Shown: piece by piece, positions 10,523-50,756 of the stretch
How the letters are laid out: every line of letters begins with the position of its first letter
Position numbering within the stretch: the first letter of the stretch is position 1
Virus record (IMG/VR): IMGVR_UViG_3300020192_000009
Coordinates: 34,504 to 98,503 of that record
Direction: 5' to 3' (one strand)
Source: a virus
Length of the DNA: 64,000 bases
Translations under genes and position numbers: made by a program
Notes under the pieces: generated by a model
Database searches by the model: none
What the model was told of the DNA's origin: nothing
The model's input: only the letters and a program-made list of their open reading frames with translations

Positions 10523-10706
10523 AACGCAAGATCATCCAAATTACATCGTGTGGCGTACCTAGCGTGCCAGGCTCCTTTAGCGAAATGCTATTCACCCTGT
10601 ATGCACTTTGTGACGATGGCACTGTGTTTCGCCTTTGGGACAACCGTCCAGATAATTGGAAACGTGTGGTGCCCATTCCACAAGACGACACGACGGAGGT
10701 GAAGCC

Positions 10707-11615
10707 ATGACCGCTGCCGAAATAGCGGACATCCTCCACCTGCATGCACTGTGGCGGCATGGGAAGGGCGAGGGATCCCGCGCAGACCTTCACGGCGTAG
10801 ATCTTCGCGGCGTAGATCTTCGCAACGCGGATCTACGCAACGCAGATTTTCGTAGCGCAGATCTACGCAACGCAGACATCAGCCGCGCAAACTTCAGCGG
10901 TGCAAATATCCGCTATGCAGACCTTCGCAATGCAAACCTCAGCTGCATCGATCTCTGCAATGCAAACCTTAGCGGCGCAAACCTCAGCGACGCCGACCTT
11001 AGCGGCGCGTATCTTATCGACGCCGACCTTAGCGCCGCAAGCCTCCGCAACACAGATCTTCGCGGCGCAAACCTCAGCAGCGCGAATTTCAGCGACGCCG
11101 ACCTTAGCGGCGCGTGTCTTATCGACGCCGATCTTAGCGGGGCAAAAACAATGATGGAATCGAAAAGCATCAATGAAATCATTGAGAGCGGTGCCATGTC
11201 GAACGAAATAAACGAATTTGTTGCCCCTCGCTCGAATCGATGGGCGGACTTCGCTTGGCCGCAATGGGTCCCACAAAACGAGCGCAAGCTAATCGCGGAG
11301 CATTACCCAACGGGCGGACCGCGCCAATGGATTGCGTTGGGCAAGCTGGAAGCTCACAGGGTGAAGCCGGAATTGCCGAGTGGTTCGACTGCGACCGCGT
11401 GGGTGTATGACGCGAGTGTCCCTGTACGGGGGCGGCTACTACACCAATGGAACAGCGTTCATGCGGTGATCGTAAATGGCAAAAGCGCCGGGATATTCAG
11501 TCACCTTGCGACAAGCAAGGGCATCGCAGCGCGTAGGCTCGAACTGCAAGACGCGCGCGCGGAAATCGATCTTGAGTTGGCGGCGTTGGACGCGGTGACG
11601 TTATGCTCAATTTAA
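10707..11615 (+). CDS. Pentapeptide-repeat protein fused to an unknown C-terminal domain
   Basis: About 24 A(D/N)LxG/N pentapeptides following the typical 'LHALW..G..G.RADL' lead-in. Confidence 0.9.
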   Translation: MTAAEIADILHLHALWRHGKGEGSRADLHGVDLRGVDLRNADLRNADFRSADLRNADISRANFSGANIRYADLRNANLSCIDLCNANLSGANLSDADLSGAYLIDADLSAASLRNTDLRGANLSSANFSDADLSGACLIDADLSGAKTMMESKSINEIIESGAMSNEINEFVAPRSNRWADFAWPQWVPQNERKLIAEHYPTGGPRQWIALGKLEAHRVKPELPSGSTATAWVYDASVPVRGRLLHQWNSVHAVIVNGKSAGIFSHLATSKGIAARRLELQDARAEIDLELAALDAVTLCSI

Positions 11616-32448: not shown

Positions 32449-34296
32449 CTAAGTATCAGACCAACGTCGTCCAATATCGACATCGACAGGGAATTTAACG
32501 CCATTCCATTCGTGCGTCCAGCACGCAATGATAGCGTCTTTAACTTCTTGCGCTTGCGCTTCAGGGGCACGAACGAGCACGGAATCGTGCCCATTGTGAA
32601 TCAAGCGCGGAGCGCTGCCAACAGGCGCACTTTGATCATAGCGTTGCGCGAAACGCACAGCACCAATACCCCAAAAGTCTGCGCCACCAGACTGATTCGG
32701 AAAGTTACTGACAACCGTAGGGTCAACCCGCCCCATGGGGAACACTTGACGACGCCCTAAGATCGGGCTGCGAATTTCGCCCTGCTGAATCGTGTAATCG
32801 AGCATCTTTTTTTGGAAAAGGCGCAACCCCTGGCAGGTACGGTTAACCTCAATCAAGAATGCGCGCACAACAGCGATTTCAAGATCAGGTTCGTCTTTGA
32901 CAACTGAGAGCCAAAGCGTGTCAACAGAGCCGCCATAGAAACCGCCGTATTCGAGACGTTTGGTCAAATCGCGAAGCTTGTCGCGCCGCTTGCAGTCTTT
33001 GCACTTAGATTTAGGGTCTGCGGGGTTTGGCCCGCAAGCGTGCCCTTTGTGCATGTTGTACGTCGTTACCAAACTTGGGAATTCCCGAGGGAACGCAAGC
33101 ACCCCAAACTGCGTATGAATGTCCCGATCATTCTGAAAGATATCGAGCAAGAACGGATCCTGTGACATGGCCGCAAGCAAACGCGCTTCAAGCTGCGCGT
33201 AATCGGCACCAATCAAGATCTCCCCGGGAGGGGCCGCTATCATCTCGCGAACGTTCGCCGCGCCACCACCAGCACGCTTAGACCAGTTTTGGCAATTGGG
33301 ACTGCTGCCCCAACGCCCCGTAATTTTGTGCACCATCCAATCGGCATGAATCACGCCGTAATGCCGCCCATCGGAAGCTTGCGCGATATCTACGGGCTCA
33401 ATGCCGTCGATAAAGTTGTTCACAGCGCTTGCCGTCAACGTGTACTTGAGCAACGCACGAGCGACTTCATGGTATGCAACGCTTTCAAGCGTTTCTTTGT
33501 CAATCTTGGGCAGGCCCGTCTTCTCTGTCATTTGCAGCAAGGGCACGCCTGCAACACGCAAGATCGCTGCCTGTTGGATCTTGGAGCCAATGTTAATGCC
33601 GCCAATGCAATCGGCAACTAAGTCTTCATCGACTATCGGTGCAGGTGTGAAACTGCCATCAAGCGCTTCCACAACAAACCCACGCGTTGTGTAACTACGT
33701 AACGTTGACGCAATCGGCGCGCGTTCTTGCTGCAGGAGTGTTGCCAAACCATCAATTGTGCAAGGCTGATGCGCAAAAGCTTGATACTTGATCCATTCCC
33801 AAATGGCTTGGCGCAATGCTGATTTTTCTAGCCCTGCCAAAAACTCTTGCTTGCGCAACGTCGCACGTTCGAGCAATGCGCCTTCGTTTGACATGGGCAT
33901 GCCGGTGCTATCAATTGAGCCGCCAACGTTTTCGCCTTTGCGTACGCTGGTTGCCTGAAACTTAGCCACCCAATCAACGAACGCTTCAAAATGCGTATCT
34001 TGCGTGTAGGGCAAGAGCGTTGTTAAGGCCTTGTCGCGCAATTCAACAAGAATACCGCGCACATGTACACGTGCATTCATGTCAACGGGAAGCCCCGCAC
34101 GTTTCATCTGCAACGCGATACGCGCAAGGCTACGGTCTAGGTCGTAAACGGCAAGTGTATTGGTTTTGTGCAACGCTGGTGCTAAGGCCAAGTAGGCGCG
34201 ACACATGCCGAGTACGTCACGCGCGTTATACCGCGCGTCGTCCGGCTTCATTACCAAAGGCACAATATTTCGTGGGTCTGTCTCGCCTGCGTACAT
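32449..34296 (-). CDS. Family A DNA polymerase, C-terminal part (ExoIII plus polymerase domain)
   Basis: YNARD (ExoIII), TGRWGSSPNCQN, ADYAQLEAR (motif A), KRLEYGGFYG (motif B), GHDS (motif C). Confidence 0.9.
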   Translation of the reverse strand: MYAGETDPRNIVPLVMKPDDARYNARDVLGMCRAYLALAPALHKTNTLAVYDLDRSLARIALQMKRAGLPVDMNARVHVRGILVELRDKALTTLLPYTQDTHFEAFVDWVAKFQATSVRKGENVGGSIDSTGMPMSNEGALLERATLRKQEFLAGLEKSALRQAIWEWIKYQAFAHQPCTIDGLATLLQQERAPIASTLRSYTTRGFVVEALDGSFTPAPIVDEDLVADCIGGINIGSKIQQAAILRVAGVPLLQMTEKTGLPKIDKETLESVAYHEVARALLKYTLTASAVNNFIDGIEPVDIAQASDGRHYGVIHADWMVHKITGRWGSSPNCQNWSKRAGGGAANVREMIAAPPGEILIGADYAQLEARLLAAMSQDPFLLDIFQNDRDIHTQFGVLAFPREFPSLVTTYNMHKGHACGPNPADPKSKCKDCKRRDKLRDLTKRLEYGGFYGGSVDTLWLSVVKDEPDLEIAVVRAFLIEVNRTCQGLRLFQKKMLDYTIQQGEIRSPILGRRQVFPMGRVDPTVVSNFPNQSGGADFWGIGAVRFAQRYDQSAPVGSAPRLIHNGHDSVLVRAPEAQAQEVKDAIIACWTHEWNGVKFPVDVDIGRRWSDT

Positions 34297-41612: not shown

Positions 41613-42338
41613 CGCGTTACGCACTTAAAATGTTTACGAACTGTTTAATCAGGCCAAGCGGCTTCAGCGGCAGCGTCCATAGGGTCTTGCAAATCGAATT
41701 TTTGCGCCAACGCTGCTCGCAGATTCACACGGCCTGTTTGTGTAGACACGATTTCAACAGCGTTGCTTTGCGGATCCCGCAACGCGACGATCATGTCTGT
41801 AACGCCAGCTTGTTGCGTTAGCTGTGCAATTTGGGCGATCAGCGCCGCGATTCGCGGAGTAACGGTAGCGGGCCTTGTCATGGGATACGTCCTTACGTAA
41901 TGATTTTGCTTTTCGGCACCGCAGGTTCCAAAGGTGCGGTTCCCAACAGTTTACCAGACACTTCTTGCGCAGCGCTAATAGCCGCAAAAGCCGCCGTCGC
42001 GTACTTCACTTGTGTATCCCGATCCAAGTCCCCCCAATCAATATCGACAGCGATTGGCAAGGCCATGAACAGCGCCCGCGCTGCCGCCGCAATTGCTTTC
42101 GCGTCCAACCCCTGAAGCATCTTCAAAATGCCACCGGCAGGCCCATCTGGCACATTGGCTTTTACCCGCAATACCGGCGCCCCTCCGGGAGGCGTGAACC
42201 CGTAGGCCACCAGCGCGGCGATGCCGTGCTCTTCCGCGTGGCGCAGGAAGCTAATAACCAAGGGATCAGGGTCTGCTTTAAAGGTCATGCGCGGCAGCCT
42301 ACCCCGGGTGCGCTAAGCGCGTCAATCAGCAACTGTTT

Positions 42339-43019
42339 TCAAAGGCCGGGGAGCGTTGGTGCCGTGTTCCACACAAATGCGTTGCAGTAAAGCTGCAATC
42401 CCCGCATAAAAACGGGTGTGCAATGCGCACGCACACGAGCGTAATATGGCAGCACACGCCGGTCTAGGTTTACCCCTTCCACGGCGCCTCCCACACACGT
42501 AGCGTCCCACGCAATCCTGACTACTTGCTGCATGTCGATGCTGCCAACAGACGTGACAACGGGCATGCGAAACCAAATTTGAAAGTAGTTGGCATATCGA
42601 AGCACTTGGTAAGCCTCTGCCTCTGCGCCAAGGATACGCGAAAAAAGCACCAATATAAAAGCGCGCGCAGCGGTCATACGCGCATACGTGGGATCCGGTG
42701 GAACTGGAAGGGGTGGAAAATGACTGCGCCGTGTCTTAGCGACCTGCACAAGGCCCGCGATACGCACGCCCAAATGTGTGTGGCAAGTGATGCCCCCAAG
42801 TGCATGCATCGCTTTATGCGCCGCCGTTGTGGGCGCTGGGCAATTGAAGCGAACGTAAGTGACATAGTGCCCACCGTAGCAGCGACGCGCTGAACGTCGC
42901 GGACGATACCTACCAAACAACCAAACAACATGTTTGCCTTCAGGATGGAACGCGCAAGCTGCTTCAAACGTTCCGAAACAATGCAATTTTGTGCGTAACC
43001 GCGGCTTTGAAGCTTTCAC
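42339..43019 (-). CDS. C-H-C-C paralog family member 1
   Basis: CAFHPEGKH...FNCP...ALGGITCH. Confidence 0.7.
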   Translation of the reverse strand: MKASKPRLRTKLHCFGTFEAACAFHPEGKHVVWLFGRYRPRRSARRCYGGHYVTYVRFNCPAPTTAAHKAMHALGGITCHTHLGVRIAGLVQVAKTRRSHFPPLPVPPDPTYARMTAARAFILVLFSRILGAEAEAYQVLRYANYFQIWFRMPVVTSVGSIDMQQVVRIAWDATCVGGAVEGVNLDRRVLPYYARVRAHCTPVFMRGLQLYCNAFVWNTAPTLPGL

Positions 43020-43669
43020 GCTTGCCACTGGCGCATCACAACGCGTTTCTCCCGGTTGAACATCGTCTCCCCTTTGTGGTACTGCTGCGTATACCGCAAC
43101 ATCCGCACGAGTTGTAATTGCGGTAAAGGGTAGTTTGTATTCAACCAAGCATAATCCGAAACCGATAATGATTGCACCGGAAGCGCATGCCGCCAATCTG
43201 TGTAGGTTTTGTCACCAATGTGAACGGGCGTTGTCGCAAAGTAGAAAATCGATCCACGCTGACCCTTCCGTTGCAACGTACCTTTAAACGTCAAGCCTTC
43301 ACCACTCCCGCTAACGATATGGAGCGTGAACCGTGATCCATCACGGTGTTTGCCGTTATACTGCGATTGCAAATAGCATTGCAGAAGGTTGAGCAACGAA
43401 TCGTCTTCTGCAAGTTTTCGTGTTGCACGCACTTTGCGAAGTGTCTCCTGGCGCGTGCGCAAATATACGCGAACAGCTGTACGGCAAACTACGGCCCCCA
43501 ACGCTGCAGCCGTACGGCTAGCGGCAGCATTTTCACACATACAATTCCAATCAATAAAACGCACCATAAAATAGGTACTGTTTGTTGGCGTGTAATGTAA
43601 CGTGACCGCATGCGAGGTTGCAGGGAAAGGTGCAAACACGCAAGGAATCTTCAATGCAAGCTGGTTCAT
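43016..43669 (-). CDS. C-H-C-C paralog family member 2
   Basis: CVFAP...H...WNCMC...ALGAVVCR. Confidence 0.75.
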   Translation of the reverse strand: MNQLALKIPCVFAPFPATSHAVTLHYTPTNSTYFMVRFIDWNCMCENAAASRTAAALGAVVCRTAVRVYLRTRQETLRKVRATRKLAEDDSLLNLLQCYLQSQYNGKHRDGSRFTLHIVSGSGEGLTFKGTLQRKGQRGSIFYFATTPVHIGDKTYTDWRHALPVQSLSVSDYAWLNTNYPLPQLQLVRMLRYTQQYHKGETMFNREKRVVMRQWQA

Positions 43670-44286
43670 AAAACTTCCCGATCAAATGCACGTTGTACGT
43701 AGCGCACTAGCAAATCCAAACGCAATTGCCCCAAATCGCAATTGGCGTTTAACCAACGTTCTGCGGTGCCATGCACCCATGGCGTGGACCAATGTGTTGT
43801 TGGGAAATGTTTTGGCAAACAAGGAAACCTTAGCCGAATAGGCAACGTCGCCGTGCCGATGCAAAGATCGATTGCAAGCGCCACGTGTAACACACCGTCA
43901 ATGTACACCGCACGTAGCCACATTTGCAAAGTTGAACCATCGGCATACGTTGTTGCATACCGTTTTTGCAACTGCCGATTTACGAATGCAAGCACACAAT
44001 GCGGACGCGTGGAAGCTACGGTGTCTAAGAGAGTTACACGAACACGCGGTAACCGAATGTGCTGTGCCACAAGCGCGCGACATGTGGCTTTCTGGTTATG
44101 TAACGCATCGACAACACGCGCAGCTTTTGAGGATTCACACGGACAATTCCAAACAATGCGATGCGCGTAACTGCGACGCGAAGCGAACAGTAAATACTGT
44201 AGTTCCACCGAATGCGTACCGAAAACACACTCAAGCTGTAACGGTATTGCCATCCGCTCTATGACAGGATCATGTGGGCGCGGCAT
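43666..44286 (-). CDS. C-H-C-C paralog family member 3
   Basis: CVFGTH...WNCPC...AL....ATCR. Confidence 0.75.
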   Translation of the reverse strand: MPRPHDPVIERMAIPLQLECVFGTHSVELQYLLFASRRSYAHRIVWNCPCESSKAARVVDALHNQKATCRALVAQHIRLPRVRVTLLDTVASTRPHCVLAFVNRQLQKRYATTYADGSTLQMWLRAVYIDGVLHVALAIDLCIGTATLPIRLRFPCLPKHFPTTHWSTPWVHGTAERWLNANCDLGQLRLDLLVRYVQRAFDREVL

Positions 44287-44299
44287 GCAAAGGCCTTTG

Positions 44300-44989
44300 C
44301 TAGGCGTACAACGCCTCGAAGCGTTTGTGGCGGCCTATGCACTTGCTGAGATTTTCAATAGCGTATTGAAAGGTCGTCCATGCATCCAGTGTAACAAAGA
44401 CTGCAGATTCACGGTCTGTTGAGTGCCACCCATAGCTAACACTGTAGCTCCATTCAAGGTATTCGTTAGTTTCCCAAAAAAGACAACCTTGCATCGTGAA
44501 TTCACCAAACAAAGCCCCGTAGTCTCTGCAGCAACGTACCGTTGGCGGCTCGACCACCGTACATGCGGCGGGAAATATACGTTGTTGTATCTGTAGGATG
44601 TACTTACTTGCAGCTTTAAAAAACTCGTGCGACACAGGGTCTTTTAACGGCGCAACACGCTGGTGTGTAGATTTGTCTTTCAAGGCGGCCCGCACAGTTC
44701 TACGACAACATTGCATGCCCCCGAGTGCCATCGCAACGGTAGCTGCCGTATTACTTGTACAAGGACAATTCCAAGTGATAGCGCGGACCAAGTTATCTGA
44801 AATTTGCGCACCCTTCACAATGTGCAACGTAATATCGTGAACTCCATTGGGCGCAAAGTCACAACGGATATCGCTGACAACAACCCTGTCAAAACGGTCT
44901 GTGGTGCGTGTCACGCACCAACGGAAGTCGCTACGTACCATAGGTTTAAGAAGCATCACATGACTCCTGTGCGTAGTAACGCGCGACAT
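44300..44989 (-). CDS. C-H-C-C paralog family member 4
   Basis: CDFAPNGVH...WNCPC...ALGGMQCCR. Confidence 0.75.
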   Translation of the reverse strand: MSRVTTHRSHVMLLKPMVRSDFRWCVTRTTDRFDRVVVSDIRCDFAPNGVHDITLHIVKGAQISDNLVRAITWNCPCTSNTAATVAMALGGMQCCRRTVRAALKDKSTHQRVAPLKDPVSHEFFKAASKYILQIQQRIFPAACTVVEPPTVRCCRDYGALFGEFTMQGCLFWETNEYLEWSYSVSYGWHSTDRESAVFVTLDAWTTFQYAIENLSKCIGRHKRFEALYA

Positions 44990-45596
44990 AGCGCCCTACA
45001 ATTTCAACTTGAGCGTACAACTCGGGGCCCAACAGTGCCTGCGCCAAACTCGTGGATGAGTCTGTGTGCATCGACGCCGCCACCTGTGCCAAACTGAATA
45101 CGGTATAAAATCCATTTACACAATTGTATCTAATTGTCGCGGTCCGAACTATTGGCGGTTCCCACGCCATCCGCGTATCCAAATCAATGCATAAATCACG
45201 ATTGCAAACAGCGCGTGCCAACCGCCATTCCGATGCTGCTGGTCGGTAACGTGCTTCCAGTGCGAACAAACACTGCGAAATAAACGCCGATTTACTGTGC
45301 GCCAACTGTGCCATTCGCACCGCAGCTTGTTGGCGTAACGCGCCTACACGGAGATCCCGGCAAGTGGGCAACCCAAGGGCTGTTAACGTCTCAGCGGCAA
45401 CAGCGCTTGCGCATGAACAATTCCAATTTACAGAACGTATGTAATACGGAAATTCTCGCCCAACTTGGCGCCTAGCGCTGTACGGCACGCTAGTGAAAAA
45501 CACATCGTGATAGCCTTTGGCTGCAAAGGCACAAGCAACGTTGCGAAACACACCCATGTATGGTTTTTTCCCAGCAAAGTGAATTTGGAGATCCAC
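44946..45596 (-). CDS. C-H-C-C paralog family member 5
   Basis: CAFAAKGYH...WNCSC...ALGLPTCR. Confidence 0.75.
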   Translation of the reverse strand: MDLQIHFAGKKPYMGVFRNVACAFAAKGYHDVFFTSVPYSARRQVGREFPYYIRSVNWNCSCASAVAAETLTALGLPTCRDLRVGALRQQAAVRMAQLAHSKSAFISQCLFALEARYRPAASEWRLARAVCNRDLCIDLDTRMAWEPPIVRTATIRYNCVNGFYTVFSLAQVAASMHTDSSTSLAQALLGPELYAQVEIVGRYVARYYAQESCDAS

Positions 45597-45599
45597 AAC

Positions 45600-46247
45600 C
45601 TAACCCCAAGGTGGCGTGGCTGCGTCGTCGTTGTAATAGAGTCGTGCGACAGCGTACGCAACATTGATCTCTGCCATCAATGCGGCGCTCCCACCCACAT
45701 CGGGATGGTGCTTACGCGCAAGTTCATGCATTTTTTCAGTTACACTTGCAAGTCGTACAGGAGGCGACTCAAAGCCTAAAACGACGTACCAAAGCTTAGG
45801 CGCATCGGCGGCGGTCAGCGCCTTGTAACCGGTGTACGCTTGCTCTTGTCGGCCTACTCCATAGCGTTGCTGTGCACGCATCGCTGTTAGGTGCGCAGCC
45901 ACCGCATTAAGGTTGTCTGCAACACGCTTCCAACGATCACAAGGAAACACAACAGACGTGTTTGTAATGCGAAAGTAGATGGCAACGCCCGTGTCACTCG
46001 GCTCGCGTACGCTGCTGTAAGGCAAGCCATCACGCCGCACAGGAATGTTTGTAGACATTACGATTGCAGTTGCCTTGAGCTTGCGCAGTTCATCACGCAA
46101 ACGCTGCAATGCAACCGTGATTGTCAATTCACGACCATGCGTGCTGAAGCGCGCGACTTGCTTACGATGCGCAGGCGTACGGCCTTCCCCCGCAGGCCAT
46201 TGCAAAGGGTACGCGGTGGTGAGTGTTTCTGTATCTTTGTTTTTCAT
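45600..46247 (-). CDS. Phage J-domain protein
   Basis: YPLQWP..RTP N-domain; C-terminal W..VLG...ARKHHPDVGGS. Confidence 0.85.
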   Translation of the reverse strand: MKNKDTETLTTAYPLQWPAGEGRTPAHRKQVARFSTHGRELTITVALQRLRDELRKLKATAIVMSTNIPVRRDGLPYSSVREPSDTGVAIYFRITNTSVVFPCDRWKRVADNLNAVAAHLTAMRAQQRYGVGRQEQAYTGYKALTAADAPKLWYVVLGFESPPVRLASVTEKMHELARKHHPDVGGSAALMAEINVAYAVARLYYNDDAATPPWG

Positions 46248-46489
46248 GAGTACTTGTCCTTAATTTTCTTTTTGCGCACGCTCGCGACAACACTGACGTG
46301 CAATTGCCCAATCCAGGTACACTGCAACCAAAAAACAGGGCAACCAACAGAGACTGAGCAATCCACAAAACAAAATAGTGGGCCCGGCTTCTTTGCGTAC
46401 ACCATTAGTGCCGAATGCCAGCCAGAAGAAACCGATTGCCCATGCCACGTACCAGCCGCCGAGAACCCACCCCAAGGTTGCGAACATAT

Positions 46490-46990
46490 TTAAAGTCTCC
46501 AAGTTTCTGTGCCAGGGGCCTTGTATTGAATCATCCAAGCGGTAGCGACACCAAGCGCGGCCCATGCATCGCTTTTAATGCCGTAGGTAGGGCCGGGATT
46601 CTTTTTGGTGCCTGGCGCTCCCCACAAATCAATCAAGCGTTGTCGAATCACGCTGTCATTGACGCCTTTGGTTTGTTTGCACAAAGCGACTTTGACTTGC
46701 GCGCGCGTAAGCCGTGTGTATAGGTCTTCGCGATTGGTGTCCAGTTGCGTGAATGCGTCGATGAAGCGCCCGATCCAAACACAGGTTTCAAACACCGTGG
46801 CACCGACTGCCATGCCGTAGGATGCAATCATTTCGATTGCCATGTGTGTGGTGGGTCGAGGCAACCGCGCAAGGTTCGCGTGCAACACCTCATTTGGTAG
46901 TTTGCCAAACGCAAGGATCCTGCGCGTTCGTACGTTTACGATTACCCAACCTGATTCGGTAGCGCCGGGATCTACTGCGATTATGTCCAT
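46490..46990 (-). CDS. RuvC-like Holliday junction resolvase
   Basis: IIAVDPG, AIEMIASYG, VFETCVWIGRF, DAWAALGVA. Confidence 0.8.
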   Translation of the reverse strand: MDIIAVDPGATESGWVIVNVRTRRILAFGKLPNEVLHANLARLPRPTTHMAIEMIASYGMAVGATVFETCVWIGRFIDAFTQLDTNREDLYTRLTRAQVKVALCKQTKGVNDSVIRQRLIDLWGAPGTKKNPGPTYGIKSDAWAALGVATAWMIQYKAPGTETWRL

Positions 46991-47053
46991 GTTGATCGTT
47001 ACCCTTTTGCCCTTGAAAATACGTACGCATAAGGCGTTTGCATCATGCGCGCC

Positions 47054-47728
47054 TCACCGCCTCGGAAGCCACCTCGGAAGTACATACGTGTAAGGCGTTT
47101 GCATCATAAGTACATTGGCAACGTCTGCGAAAGCATTAAATGCACGAATAATGCGCGGTAGACACGCTGCCATCTGTAGATCCACAACAGCTAGACCTTC
47201 AATTGTTGCCTGTTGCTTTTCAACACAATTAGCAACGTCCATTCCTGTATCGAGAGTACGCCCCCAAAAACAAAAACACGAAGCATCCGTGCCTAGCCCA
47301 ATACGCAAGCTCATAGTCAAAGCATCCTCCGCCCTTAAGCGCCATGACAGTCTCCTGGCGAAAATCACTGCATGGTCTACAAGGTTCGTTTCCAAAACAC
47401 GGGAAATGTACTTAACCAAAATGCGCTTACGGATTGCGATCAAATCATCAGGCTTTTGACTTTCGTAGCGTTGTCTGCGTAGCGCTATCAACGGGGCGCT
47501 GTCTCGGATATGCTTACGCCATGCCATTCGACAAGTGGCTTGTCCTAGGGCCGCCGCGACAACATGCGCAGCCTCGCTAGTTGCTTTGCAATTCCACTGA
47601 ACTGCGCCCGTGGTCGTCACATACGCAATACTGTGATTACCGCTGTCTGCAAAAGTACATGGAACGTGCAGCGTAAGCCATTGGTCCCGGTAGGTGCACA
47701 TTGATCCGCTTGTGGGTTGGTCGCGCAT
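47054..47728 (-). CDS. C-H-C-C paralog family member 6
   Basis: CTFADSGNH...WNCK...ALGQATCR. Confidence 0.75.
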   Translation of the reverse strand: MRDQPTSGSMCTYRDQWLTLHVPCTFADSGNHSIAYVTTTGAVQWNCKATSEAAHVVAAALGQATCRMAWRKHIRDSAPLIALRRQRYESQKPDDLIAIRKRILVKYISRVLETNLVDHAVIFARRLSWRLRAEDALTMSLRIGLGTDASCFCFWGRTLDTGMDVANCVEKQQATIEGLAVVDLQMAACLPRIIRAFNAFADVANVLMMQTPYTYVLPRWLPRR

Positions 47729-48006
47729 TAGCAGTCTTCTTTTGTAAAAATGGCGTCACTCAACCCCAAATACTTTTGAAATGTAGATCTACAAGTAACG
47801 CCCCCAAGCGCCACTGTTGTTGCATGCGCCACCTCATCGGTCACGGGGCATTGAAAATCCACAACCCCATAGTCAACGCTGAACCTCACAGCGTGCCCGT
47901 AGCCCTCGGAACAAAACCCACATTCAAGACTAGCGGAATTCCATTTAATAGACTCTAAAAGGCCCCACTCCAAGGAGCGTTTTTTGTGCCAGCGCCAAAT
48001 CATCAT
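47728..48006 (-). CDS. C-H-C-C paralog family member 7 (domain only)
   Basis: CGFCSEGYGH...FQCP...ALGGVTCR. Confidence 0.7.
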   Translation of the reverse strand: MMIWRWHKKRSLEWGLLESIKWNSASLECGFCSEGYGHAVRFSVDYGVVDFQCPVTDEVAHATTVALGGVTCRSTFQKYLGLSDAIFTKEDC

Positions 48007-48248
48007 GGTTGCTCCGAATCGTCCAAGCCTGCGTAAGGCCGCCACGTATGACGGCACGTCAATGCGCCTAACGCCATTGCGGTTTCGTGAACGGCATCAT
48101 CCTCCATGGGACAATTCCATTTCACCTGCTTACCGTCAGGGCTGTACTGTACAAGGTGTGAACCTGTGGGCGCGAATGTACACGGTGCTAAGACGCCATA
48201 CCAACCGTCAGTCACAAAGTAACGAGGCACAATGCCTGAAAGGCTCAT
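48003..48248 (-). CDS. C-H-C-C paralog family member 8 (domain only)
   Basis: CTFAPTGSH...WNCP...ALGALTCR. Confidence 0.7.
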   Translation of the reverse strand: MSLSGIVPRYFVTDGWYGVLAPCTFAPTGSHLVQYSPDGKQVKWNCPMEDDAVHETAMALGALTCRHTWRPYAGLDDSEQP

Positions 48249-48901
48249 AGGGTTCCCCCTTGCACTAAGCTCCACACAGTATCGCCGTGGTGTTTCGCAT
48301 TATGAGTTACCAACATCGGTTGCAACATGCCTTCGAGACAAAGCTGTAGCTGTCCCCCACGAGGCACAGCCCAAGGTGAAGCATTCAGGAGGCTAGACAC
48401 TGTTGGGAAAATTTTCCAAACAACTGTTGTGGGCCTTGAGCCCTTTAAAGGCGCAATATGCATTTGCACTTTAAGCTGAAGACCCCAAGCATCGGGGTGT
48501 TTGGCAATCTGTAATTCGACCGGCGCCCAATCAATTTGAATATAGCTGTCAGCGATGCGCGTTAAGGCAGGCAAACACTTAGCGATTGCGTGTTTGCAAT
48601 GCATGCTCAAAATCAGAGATTGCCCATTAACAAGATCGTCAATGTAAGCGTATTGCGCGGCGAGGCGTGCATCTCTAAGCGCGCATGCAGCTGCATTTTT
48701 TTGCATGTAACGCGGCCACCAGTGCCTGCAAGTGAAGTGCCCTAGCGCGTTCATGGTTTTGTGCGCGCTCTCATCTGCGATGGGGCAATTCCATTTGATG
48801 TTGCGCGTGCCAATCGTATGCCGCACATGGTGCGCCACGCCATTCGGTGCGTATGCACATGGAATGATTAGCTTGACGCTTTTGGCACGCGGTTTTTTCA
48901 T
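48245..48901 (-). CDS. C-H-C-C paralog family member 9
   Basis: CAYAPNGVAH...WNCP...ALGHFTCR. Confidence 0.75.
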   Translation of the reverse strand: MKKPRAKSVKLIIPCAYAPNGVAHHVRHTIGTRNIKWNCPIADESAHKTMNALGHFTCRHWWPRYMQKNAAACALRDARLAAQYAYIDDLVNGQSLILSMHCKHAIAKCLPALTRIADSYIQIDWAPVELQIAKHPDAWGLQLKVQMHIAPLKGSRPTTVVWKIFPTVSSLLNASPWAVPRGGQLQLCLEGMLQPMLVTHNAKHHGDTVWSLVQGGTL

Positions 48902-50457
48902 GTGCCTAACACCTGCGCTGCAATGGCGTCAAAGCCGAGTCCAAGGGAACGCTGGAAATCTTCTTTCACGCCCAGCGCTTCAATCAACTTGGTTTCGATT
49001 AGTGTGTCTGCGTACAGATAGACAACAACGTGGGGGCGCGCTGGACTGAACGTGCGCATTTCCGCCTGAAGCACGTAGGCGGGGATCCAATCTAGTTCAA
49101 CGAAAATTGCGTAATCACTTGCGCTCAGATCGATTGCAACACCACCAGCCGCAATGCTGGCAATGATCGCGCATGGATTAGGGGTTGCCGTGAACATCGT
49201 AATTTGATCGACATCGGAACCTGTACGGTAACGGTACGTCTCGAAACCTGGAAGCACACGCCGCGCGATCTCAGCGGCAACCGCATCTGCAACTTCAGTG
49301 TGCCACGTCCATAAGACAACTTTGGGATGCCCATTTGCCAAGGCATGTTCAACGCCATCAACAGCGGCTTTGATTTTGAGAGACGCGAGCTTGCGTCGTA
49401 GTGTCGCAAGATAGCCCGCAACTGTATTGGTGCCGCGAGCAAGACACGCGAGCATTGCAGCGCTTTCGACACTAGCGAGCTTGGAAGGGGGCACGGCAAC
49501 AGGTTCAATCACGCGTGTTGTGGGCGGCAGCTGTGGCGCTACATCATGCCAAGTGCGCCGCAACATAATGTGCTGCAACCGCGCTGCGAATTCATCGGCA
49601 TTGGAAAGGCCGTTGTATTGCCAGCCGTGAGCACCTGGCTGTGCGTCACAATAGTGTTTAGCAAAATTGAAATGTGTGTCCCACGCACCGGGGCAGATAA
49701 GGTTTAGCAATGCATACAGGCTGTCAGGTTTCGACCACATAGGCGTGCCGGTCAGGCCTATGATGCGTTCGGCGCGGCCCGCGAGAACCACAACGGCACT
49801 GGTGCGTTTAGCTTTGCGGTTTTGCATCGCATGAACTTCATCAAGTACGAGGGTGGCGATTGTTTGGCCGGTGGCACAAAGAAACCGTGTCCAGGCGTCC
49901 ACCACGTCAAAGTGCACGAAATAGGCGGGATATCCCAATGGAAGAGCCGTATTCGCAATGTCTTGGGTGCCCGTCAGCACGAGGGGGCGGAAGCCGTGAA
50001 CGCGCTCAACCCACGAAACCCATACATCGCGGCTTGCCAAAGGACCCACAATAACGAGGGATCCGTCTTTGGGATCGTGCGCATGACATGTAAGCGCAGT
50101 CTTACCTAAACGCATTTCATACGCAAGAAGAACGCCCTGCCTACTTAATAGGTAGGGGAGATCCGCCGCTTGGTAAGGGCGCAGCGTGACACCCGGAACG
50201 CTGCCGAGCAAAACACCGGCTGAAAGCGGCACACCTGCGCCCAGTGATGCCACGACGGAAGGGGGCAGCAAAGGTGTGTGCGAACGGTGAAACTTGACGC
50301 GGAAAACACCAGCGGGGTTAACCGTCCAATACATGCCGGGATGACGGCCATATTGCGTACGCCATTCAATTGGAGGATTGTCCCACACGAACCAATCGGT
50401 ACGGATAGGGCGGATATGTGTTGCAGGCGCCACGAGCACCCCTATACATAACGCCAA
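48898..50457 (-). CDS. SNF2-family (SF2) helicase
   Basis: LRPYQ, EMRLGKT, LDEVH, LTGTP, LRRT, QAEMR. Confidence 0.85.
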   Translation of the reverse strand: MALCIGVLVAPATHIRPIRTDWFVWDNPPIEWRTQYGRHPGMYWTVNPAGVFRVKFHRSHTPLLPPSVVASLGAGVPLSAGVLLGSVPGVTLRPYQAADLPYLLSRQGVLLAYEMRLGKTALTCHAHDPKDGSLVIVGPLASRDVWVSWVERVHGFRPLVLTGTQDIANTALPLGYPAYFVHFDVVDAWTRFLCATGQTIATLVLDEVHAMQNRKAKRTSAVVVLAGRAERIIGLTGTPMWSKPDSLYALLNLICPGAWDTHFNFAKHYCDAQPGAHGWQYNGLSNADEFAARLQHIMLRRTWHDVAPQLPPTTRVIEPVAVPPSKLASVESAAMLACLARGTNTVAGYLATLRRKLASLKIKAAVDGVEHALANGHPKVVLWTWHTEVADAVAAEIARRVLPGFETYRYRTGSDVDQITMFTATPNPCAIIASIAAGGVAIDLSASDYAIFVELDWIPAYVLQAEMRTFSPARPHVVVYLYADTLIETKLIEALGVKEDFQRSLGLGFDAIAAQVLGT

Positions 50458-50756
50458 TTATATAACAGTGTCAAGCGCGTTACGTAGAGTTTACCGCCGA
50501 AACGCTTACTCTTTTTGGTTGGCCGCGTCACGGGCGGCGCGGCGGCGCGTTTGGATCTCGTAAACAAGGATGTCCAAGCCGAGGATCGCAACGATCACGG
50601 CAAAGCCTAGCTGCCAAAGCTTCAGGCCCCATACGATGTCTAGATTGCTAAATGCGCTCACAGACATACAGGAATAACGCAAACGCATATTTGCGTCAAG
50701 TTTAAAAAAGGGCGCGCCACGCGTTTACACGGCATTGCGGGGCCTTTACGCCATTA

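Follow-up and report, generated by a model that had tools for sequence, protein, structure and literature searches.

A nine-member protein family with an invariant Cys/His domain, restricted to one phage lineage

Large eukaryotic viruses harbour multigene families and 'genomic accordions', for instance the K3L expansions of poxviruses and the ankyrin/F-box and BTB/kelch families. CDGSH/mitoNEET-type domains hold a [2Fe–2S] cluster with three cysteines and one histidine. SWIM domains are zinc modules of the type CxCxnCxH, typically with n = 6–16, whose partners are SNF2 ATPases and Rad51-paralog complexes (PMC5727457). Here we report on a family of nine proteins, p1 to p9, encoded on the minus strand of the IMG/VR virus record IMGVR_UViG_3300020192_000009. 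The record is a single contig of 98,503 bp; the window that we analysed, to which all positions refer, is a stretch of 64,000 nucleotides (nt) that corresponds to bases 34504–98503 of the record.

Nine paralogs in a single phage lineage

A first-pass annotation of this window had described nine minus-strand paralogs with a common C-H-C-C domain. All nine open reading frames (ORFs) are present where it had placed them, and the common domain is confirmed. In MAFFT alignments of the whole proteins (A1) and of their N-terminal 60–75 residues (A2), the invariant columns are Cys15, His24, Cys39, Ala52, Leu53 and Cys58 (p1 numbering), and the motifs C-x-F-A-P-x-G-x-H, (W/F)(N/Q)C and A-L-G-x2-T-C-R are nearly invariant. 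Once the orthologues from other strains are added (alignment A3), Cys, His, Cys, Leu and Cys remain invariant. Profile hidden Markov models from which one paralog was left out at a time recover every omitted member with 41–65 bits (E-values from 1e-11 to 5e-19), whereas the best ORF outside the family does not exceed 15 bits among the 2,075 stop-to-stop ORFs found in six frames of the whole record. This shows that there are exactly nine copies and that the pattern is far beyond chance; the possibility that the alignment would fail significance can be set aside. The nine genes together amount to 5,082 nt, 5.2% of the record. It is rare for a phage of this size (about 100 kb) to retain nine paralogs of a single gene.

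A match to a characterised family had been envisaged as the result that would make the locus mundane. None of the nine proteins has a match in Pfam, PHROGs, NCBIfam or PADLOC. A profile search of the PDB sequences came back empty, the N-terminal domain (N-domain) matches no solved structure and no predicted viral structure, and the ESM Atlas gave no usable feature match (its own model of p1 is poor, with a predicted local distance difference test score, pLDDT, of 0.34).

A HMMER profile search of 1.84 billion cluster representatives returned 16 proteins, half of which belong to the phage itself or are strain variants almost identical to its proteins. P0009 and P0011, carried by short ENA contigs (1.5 and 2.3 kb), are genuine relatives that have diverged. 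P0011 (215 amino acids, aa) is full length and nearest to p1, with 24 identities over 52 positions of the N-domain; P0009 (232 aa) is nearest to p9, with 52 identities out of 85 in the N-domain (61%) and 41 out of 123 in the C-terminal part, or tail (33%). The other six (P0010 and P0012–P0016) are long WD40-repeat proteins and were rejected as spurious, since only their repeated hairpin C-A-F-S-P-D-G-x-H-V matches. The hairpin of the family, C-x-F-A-P-x-G-x-H-x-V, mimics the WD40 sequence C-A-F-S-P-D-G-R-H-V-V with E-values down to 4e-12, a trap for automated annotation.

Among the 1.84 billion representatives, the family is confined to this phage lineage. Word-indexed searches of 5.8 billion proteins are consistent with this restriction, and tblastn searches of 50,697 GenBank phages with p4 and p8 found no match. 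Viral and metagenome contigs were also searched with p2, P0011, P0009, p1, the neighbouring SNF2 protein and the sub-family alignment A5; no usable related locus was found in these searches, which mask near-identical records. One candidate locus was rejected: its word match, within a structural protein of 922 aa, is due to chance, and the locus has no N-domain. The family is thus real, new and restricted to one phage lineage; it is also old, as is seen from the relations between its members.

Origin and variation of the tails

The maximum-likelihood tree of the N-domains separates p1, p2, p3, p4 and P0011 from p5, p6, p7, p8, p9 and P0009 (support 83/88). This split follows the position of the genes on the map, as would result from tandem duplication inside two blocks. 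In the DNA itself, the only repeats between paralogs are the codons TGG-AAT-TGT of the W-N-C motif, which indicates that the duplications are old and have not been homogenised by gene conversion. Since P0011 groups with the p1–p4 block and P0009 with p9, the expansion predates the split from these relatives, and individual paralogs have been kept since. The short genes p2 and p3, for instance, persist as such in other strains (P0017 and P0002).

The first-pass annotation counted two proteins that consist of little more than the domain and seven with unrelated tails of about 130 aa. The two-to-seven division stands; the tails are in fact 133–159 aa long, in open frames with no internal stops, and retain residual similarity within each block. 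According to BLAST and hhalign, similarity between tails is seen only for p7 and p8 (hhalign between tail groups gives a probability of 21%). This is what one would expect: the N-domains of the paralogs are 30–45% identical, and in orthologue pairs such as p9 and P0009 the identity of the tail is lost about twice as fast as that of the N-domain, so that the tails should have become unrecognisable between paralogs. No homologue of the tails was found in another protein context in Pfam, PHROGs, NCBIfam, PADLOC or, for p4 and p8, in the above tblastn searches.

The idea that the tails are swappable specificity domains is not borne out, because the tree follows map position, the lengths are uniform, similarity is residual and no tail has a homologue elsewhere. 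Whole-gene tandem duplication followed by fast divergence of the tails is the simpler account of the pattern; domain exchange is not needed, and no finding speaks for it. All seven long proteins are basic (isoelectric point, pI, 8.8–10.3; net charge +6 to +20) and rich in cysteine (2.3–5%), while the two domain-only proteins are acidic. We also note a C-[LT]-P motif in the tails of p4, p7 and p9, which was seen post hoc and is not used as evidence.

The contigs of four sequencing runs were compared over positions 41800–50500, which gave about 296 differences, the best-supported 40 of which were classified. Among these 40, the tails contain 17 nonsynonymous and 7 synonymous differences, the N-domains 1 and 3, and the flanking SNF2 gene and 131-aa ORF 1 and 6, respectively. 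The contrast between the tails and everything else (2 nonsynonymous, 9 synonymous) has a Fisher p of 0.009. The tail of p6 is the richest in nonsynonymous differences (9, to 2 synonymous).

Larger changes are also seen. In one contig of the freshwater run X13, position 42418 is joined to 43030 by 29 foreign letters, so that 42419–43029 is skipped and nearly all of p9 is gone; support for this junction is weak (depth 4.3, 71-nt side). In X13 and X8, 105 nt of the p1 tail (48345–48449, residues ~151–186) are replaced by 108 unrelated letters, X8 having this replacement as a minority form (depth 16 of 74). X13 and X8 also have a 12-nt in-frame insertion behind 44945, at the N-terminus of p6, which corresponds to the extra NEQY of the variant P0003. 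A diversity-generating retroelement was considered as the source of variation and excluded: the record has no PF00078 reverse transcriptase, and the changes are ordinary transitions (in X13, A>G 53, G>A 41, C>T 38 and T>C 35).

The N-domain and its genomic setting

Cysteine and histidine make up four of the six invariant columns of A1 and A2, with the spacing C-x8-H followed by C-x-C or C…C. A fifth Cys/His position alternates. The proteins p1–p4, p9 and P0011 have His48, in the A-H of the first helix, and no second cysteine after WNC; p5–p8 have Cys41 (WNCxC) and alanine or serine at the position of the helix histidine; P0009 has both Cys41 and His48. This alternation suggests, short of proving it, an exchange of ligands at a metal site. 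It is important to note that p5–p8 form one clade, so that it counts for about one evolutionary event.

AlphaFold2, run with an alignment of 13 rows, predicts p2 with a mean pLDDT of 80.6 and a predicted TM-score of 0.66. The model has strands at residues 11–13, 16–22 and 30–35, a short bridge at 41–42 and helices at 51–59 and 65–73. For p1, the N-domain is predicted with a pLDDT of 83–91 and the tail with 35–69. In the model, the first cysteine follows strand 1 and the histidine opens strand 2, so that the F-A-P-x-G hairpin has the two opposite each other at its base; after the third strand comes the WNC cysteine, and the last cysteine caps the second helix at its N-terminus. Read from the predicted secondary structure, this layout would suit a single structural metal site, and the N-domain is probably a new small metal-binding fold. 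A metal-binding module of the kind proposed in the first-pass annotation is plausible, considering the Cys/His columns, the complementary fifth ligand and the confident prediction of a small fold.

The coordinates of the nine genes and of their neighbours are collected in Table 1.

Table 1. Members of the family and genes next to them (positions in the window; "left-out" is the score of the protein against the profile built without it).
Feature	Position	Strand	Description
SNF2-family helicase	48898–50457	-	First operon gene; PF00176 (E 1e-15), phrog_62 (E 6e-58)
p1	48245–48901	-	218 aa; N-domain ~8–60 (C15, H24, C39, H48, C58), then basic 159-aa tail; left-out 58.7 bits
p2	48003–48248	-	81 aa; ORF reaches 48275; domain-only, acidic, pI 5.0; left-out 64.3 bits; strain variant P0001
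p3	47728–48006	-	92 aa; ORF reaches 48057; domain-only, acidic, pI 5.8; FQC replaces WNC; left-out 43.3 bits; orthologue P0002
p4	47054–47728	-	224 aa; N-domain and basic 157-aa tail
RuvC-like Holliday-junction resolvase	46490–46990	-	Between the paralog blocks; phrog_1770 (E 3e-16)
101-aa hydrophobic ORF	46260–46565	-	Overlaps the 3' end of the resolvase gene by 76 nt (46490–46565) in another frame
J-like protein	45600–46247	-	Between the paralog blocks; C-terminal HPD motif; phrog_9210 (E 1e-42)
p5	44946–45557	-	203 aa; ORF reaches 45596; WNCSC, without the helix His, long beta2–beta3 insertion; left-out 51.2 bits; P0004
p6	44300–44989	-	218–229 aa, likely ATG 44956 (or 44989); WNCPC; left-out 58.7 bits; P0003
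p7	43666–44286	-	206 aa; WNCPC variant with ALHNQKATC
p8	43016–43669	-	217 aa; WNCMC; tail net charge +13; left-out 65.1 bits; P0008
p9	42339–43019	-	226 aa from GTG; ORF reaches 43196; helix His, long insertion, net charge +20; left-out 41.3 bits

The likely starts of p2, p3, p5, p6 and p9 differ from those of the first-pass annotation and are the ones given in the table. The GTG start of p9 overlaps the stop of p8, and P0009, the diverged orthologue of p9, starts at the equivalent MKRKRKPRLRTKL. Overlaps of 4 nt (ATGA or GTGA) are found at SNF2/p1, p1/p2, p2/p3, p7/p8 and p8/p9, and p3 and p4 overlap by 1 nt. These overlaps of starts and stops indicate that the genes are co-transcribed and probably translationally coupled, and imply that the nine genes would be co-expressed early in infection with replication and recombination genes. 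A scan of the locus for promoters and terminators gave nothing above shuffles.

The operon begins with the SNF2 gene and p1–p4, continues with the genes of the RuvC-like protein, the 101-aa hydrophobic protein (no family match in Pfam/PHROG-type searches) and the J-like protein, then p5–p9, and goes on to a 131-aa ORF, a PD-(D/E)XK exonuclease and Sak4, followed by a Dda-like helicase and PolA. The resolvase and SNF2 neighbours that the first-pass annotation had named are both supported by their profile matches. Its J-domain gene holds in part: the PHROG match and the HPD motif agree with it, and its homologues bear the annotation DnaJ-like chaperonin or molecular chaperone, but the Pfam DnaJ match is sub-threshold (12.9 bits). 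No member of the family was found within 7 kb of J-like homologues at the two loci scanned (Synechococcus and Erythrobacter phages), which suggests that a partnership with the J-like protein is not conserved. A second copy of the last 12 codons of p4 (MMQTPYTYVLPR, window 47072–47107), 83% identical, lies 61 nt downstream at 47011–47046, within the 63 nt that separate p4 from the resolvase gene. It has the look of a scar left by a small tandem duplication at the 3' end of p4.

Regarding the phage itself, IMG/VR classes the topology of the record as linear and CheckV estimates its completeness at 88%. The same DNA occurs in about a dozen microbial-mat metagenome runs (2018) and partly also in freshwater runs. 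The PolA-type polymerase (window 32449–34296) is at most ~25% identical to any counterpart in the 50,697 GenBank phage records, over 50–76% of its length, and blastn of the locus against the same records found no match; judging from these comparisons, the lineage appears to be far removed from any cultured phage. The J-like protein has its closest relatives in the Synechococcus phages Ssp-JY39 and Yong-M2-251 (41.6% identity), then come Erythrobacter and Caulobacter phages, and then Microbacterium and Gordonia phages. This may point, if only faintly, to a cyanobacterial or mat-dwelling host. Elsewhere in the window, a 319-aa ORF (10656–11615) matches several function-unknown PHROGs in multiple internal stretches (four with phrog_7713, E 4e-35); it is a repeat-containing protein with no relation to the nine-gene family.

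Possible roles and comparison with known systems

We tentatively favour, at somewhat less than even confidence, a role in host takeover or counter-defence, in which the constant metal module docks a common partner, the tails recognise changing host targets, and p2 and p3 are tail-less competitors or regulators. In this reading, old tandem duplications of one whole gene produced the nine-gene family within an early, replication operon. The constant module of about 60 aa, with three beta-strands and two helices, would be held by one metal ion, most likely Zn(II), bound by the cysteine that ends strand 1, the histidine that starts strand 2, the cysteine of the WNC loop and the cysteine at the N-terminus of the second helix; the alternating Cys41/His48 may be a spare or second-shell ligand. 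All members would dock by this module to one common partner, or to nucleic acid. The seven basic C-terminal halves of 133–159 aa derive from one ancestral tail in which amino acid change is almost at the neutral expectation, and would recognise different, fast-changing host targets, as in virus multigene families. The acidic p2 and p3 could compete for the common docking site or regulate it.

The first-pass annotation had also proposed an anti-defence or host-takeover role. The nonsynonymous excess in the tails and the loss or replacement of tails between strains fit this proposal, the function itself being what we infer from them. Several points weigh against it. The setting of the family is a replication and recombination operon, and not a recognisable anti-defence island. 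No homologue links the family to any function, and no RNA run is listed for the locus among public runs. The 17:7 ratio in the tails, which comes from a partial list of single-nucleotide differences in low-depth contigs pooled over strains, is indicative only, and fits relaxed constraint alone as well as diversifying selection. Last, metal binding is deduced from conservation only, and the set of three cysteines and one histidine could also hold an iron–sulfur cluster.

The main rival is that the nine proteins bind nucleic acids as accessory or specificity factors of the phage SNF2 helicase and recombination machinery, functionally similar to SWIM proteins, which we consider doubtful but quite possible. 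In this mechanism the metal domain would dock on SNF2, Sak4, RuvC or DNA, with the basic tails binding to DNA structures or sites that differ from one member to the next. The translational coupling of p1–p4 to the SNF2 gene argues for it, as do the position of the blocks among the genes of the resolvase, exonuclease, Sak4, Dda helicase and PolA and the basic character of all the long members. SWIM zinc modules are predicted to bind DNA or proteins and act with Rad51 paralogs in the Shu complex (PMC5727457), and SWIM domains are often associated with SNF2 ATPases and recombination proteins. On the contrary, core replication partners are normally single-copy and conserved rather than nine-fold and fast-evolving, and the family does not accompany the SNF2, Sak4 or J-like genes of other phages.

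The domain itself was also compared with SWIM. The two modules are small and rich in strands, and each ends in a helix with a cysteine ligand at its N-terminus; p5–p8 have CxC after a beta-strand, and the spacing C39-x-C41-x16-C58-x-H60 is at the upper edge of the SWIM range. BFVD searches give weak rows to SWIM-type viral proteins (TMq 0.32–0.42). However, p5–p8 do not have the final histidine (CxC…C only), p1–p4 do not have the second cysteine (C…CxH in p1 and p2), and no paralog has the complete CxCxnCxH signature. The invariant first cysteine and histidine of the family have no SWIM counterpart, and an extra helix stands between CxC and the last cysteine. The SWIM profile PF04434 matches none of the nine proteins at E ≤ 1 and nothing in six frames of the record at E ≤ 10, while it matches in all 14 control genomes. 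Membership in SWIM was therefore rejected, on the profile and on the four-ligand signature (alignment A3). If the proteins are SNF2 or recombination accessory factors, they would represent a new class of partners of phage SNF2 helicases.

Another hypothesis is that the genes are largely drifting duplicates, one or a few of which function by their N-domain, the tails being weakly constrained linkers or disordered and p2 and p3 the end point of the process. The tail ratio near the neutral expectation, the low-confidence model of the p1 tail, the two members already tail-less and the strain contig without p9 are in line with this idea. We find it improbable, because all seven tails keep their length and open frames without internal stops, orthologues with tails persist in diverged relatives (33% identity for the tail of P0009; P0011 full length), other strains conserve p2 and p3 in their short form, and a ~100-kb phage would hardly carry 5% of its genome as ballast.

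The proteins could also be degenerate selfish genes of the homing-endonuclease type, with the hairpin and helix as a His-Me (HNH-like) core and the variable C-terminal halves as DNA-recognition domains. The invariant hairpin histidine is followed by a near-invariant asparagine 14 residues later and, in five members, by a histidine 10 residues further on; the model has a hairpin and a helix. The length of ~205–226 aa, the constant N-terminus and variable basic C-terminus, and the presence of multiple paralogs in one phage genome recall free-standing enzymes such as T4 Mob and Seg. Both membership in HNH/His-Me and this origin are very improbable: no paralog matches an HNH-type Pfam profile at E ≤ 1 nor the record PF01844 at E ≤ 10, no His-Me finger structure is among the VIA or Foldseek rows, the asparagine is glutamine in p3 and glycine in P0011, four members, p5–p8, have alanine or serine in place of the putative third catalytic residue, and the genes form two contiguous, translationally coupled blocks, not dispersed single insertions between conserved genes, without flanking DNA repeats common to the paralogs.

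Two other metal-binding domains were compared with the N-domain. The DnaG-type CHC2 zinc ribbon (PF01807) has the same order Cys-His-Cys-Cys, with the first pair on a hairpin beside an aromatic residue and a proline (CPFH…PSF, compared to CxFAPxGxH in the family). However, the Cys-His spacing of the family is 8 and not 2, its second pair is CxC or a single cysteine and a distant one rather than CxxC, and there is no primase domain. Membership was rejected, since PF01807 does not match and the spacing CxxH…CxxC is absent. As for the CDGSH domains, the family has their set of three cysteines and one histidine, including CxC and a G-x-H turn; this likeness bears only on which metal is bound. The order of the motifs is reversed in the family (C…H first, CxC later), the spacing differs, and there is no Pfam match at E ≤ 1.

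Regarding the organisation of the family, it resembles the multigene families of large eukaryotic viruses, which also combine tandem expansion of paralogs, a constant docking module (proposed here) with a fast-diversifying recognition module, and gain, loss or replacement between strains. They differ in that the host is here bacterial, and in that the duplications are here old, as the absence of similarity at the DNA level indicates, rather than recent accordion bursts. The favoured role can be taken one step further: a metal-binding fold not seen before would be the constant 'handle' of a diversifying recognition family, each tail of which neutralises or redirects a different host (defence) protein via the shared partner, with the acidic tail-less members as built-in regulators, and the family would be to a bacterial virus what the adaptor multigene families are to large eukaryotic viruses. 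We regard this extended picture, taken as a whole, as unlikely. Should a constant handle with variable tails prove true, the family would provide a metal-binding fold that is new, seven natural specificity variants built on the same scaffold, and a tractable case of a bacterial virus that diversifies a protein family under host pressure. Its organisation is already known from virus multigene families; the protein family itself is new.

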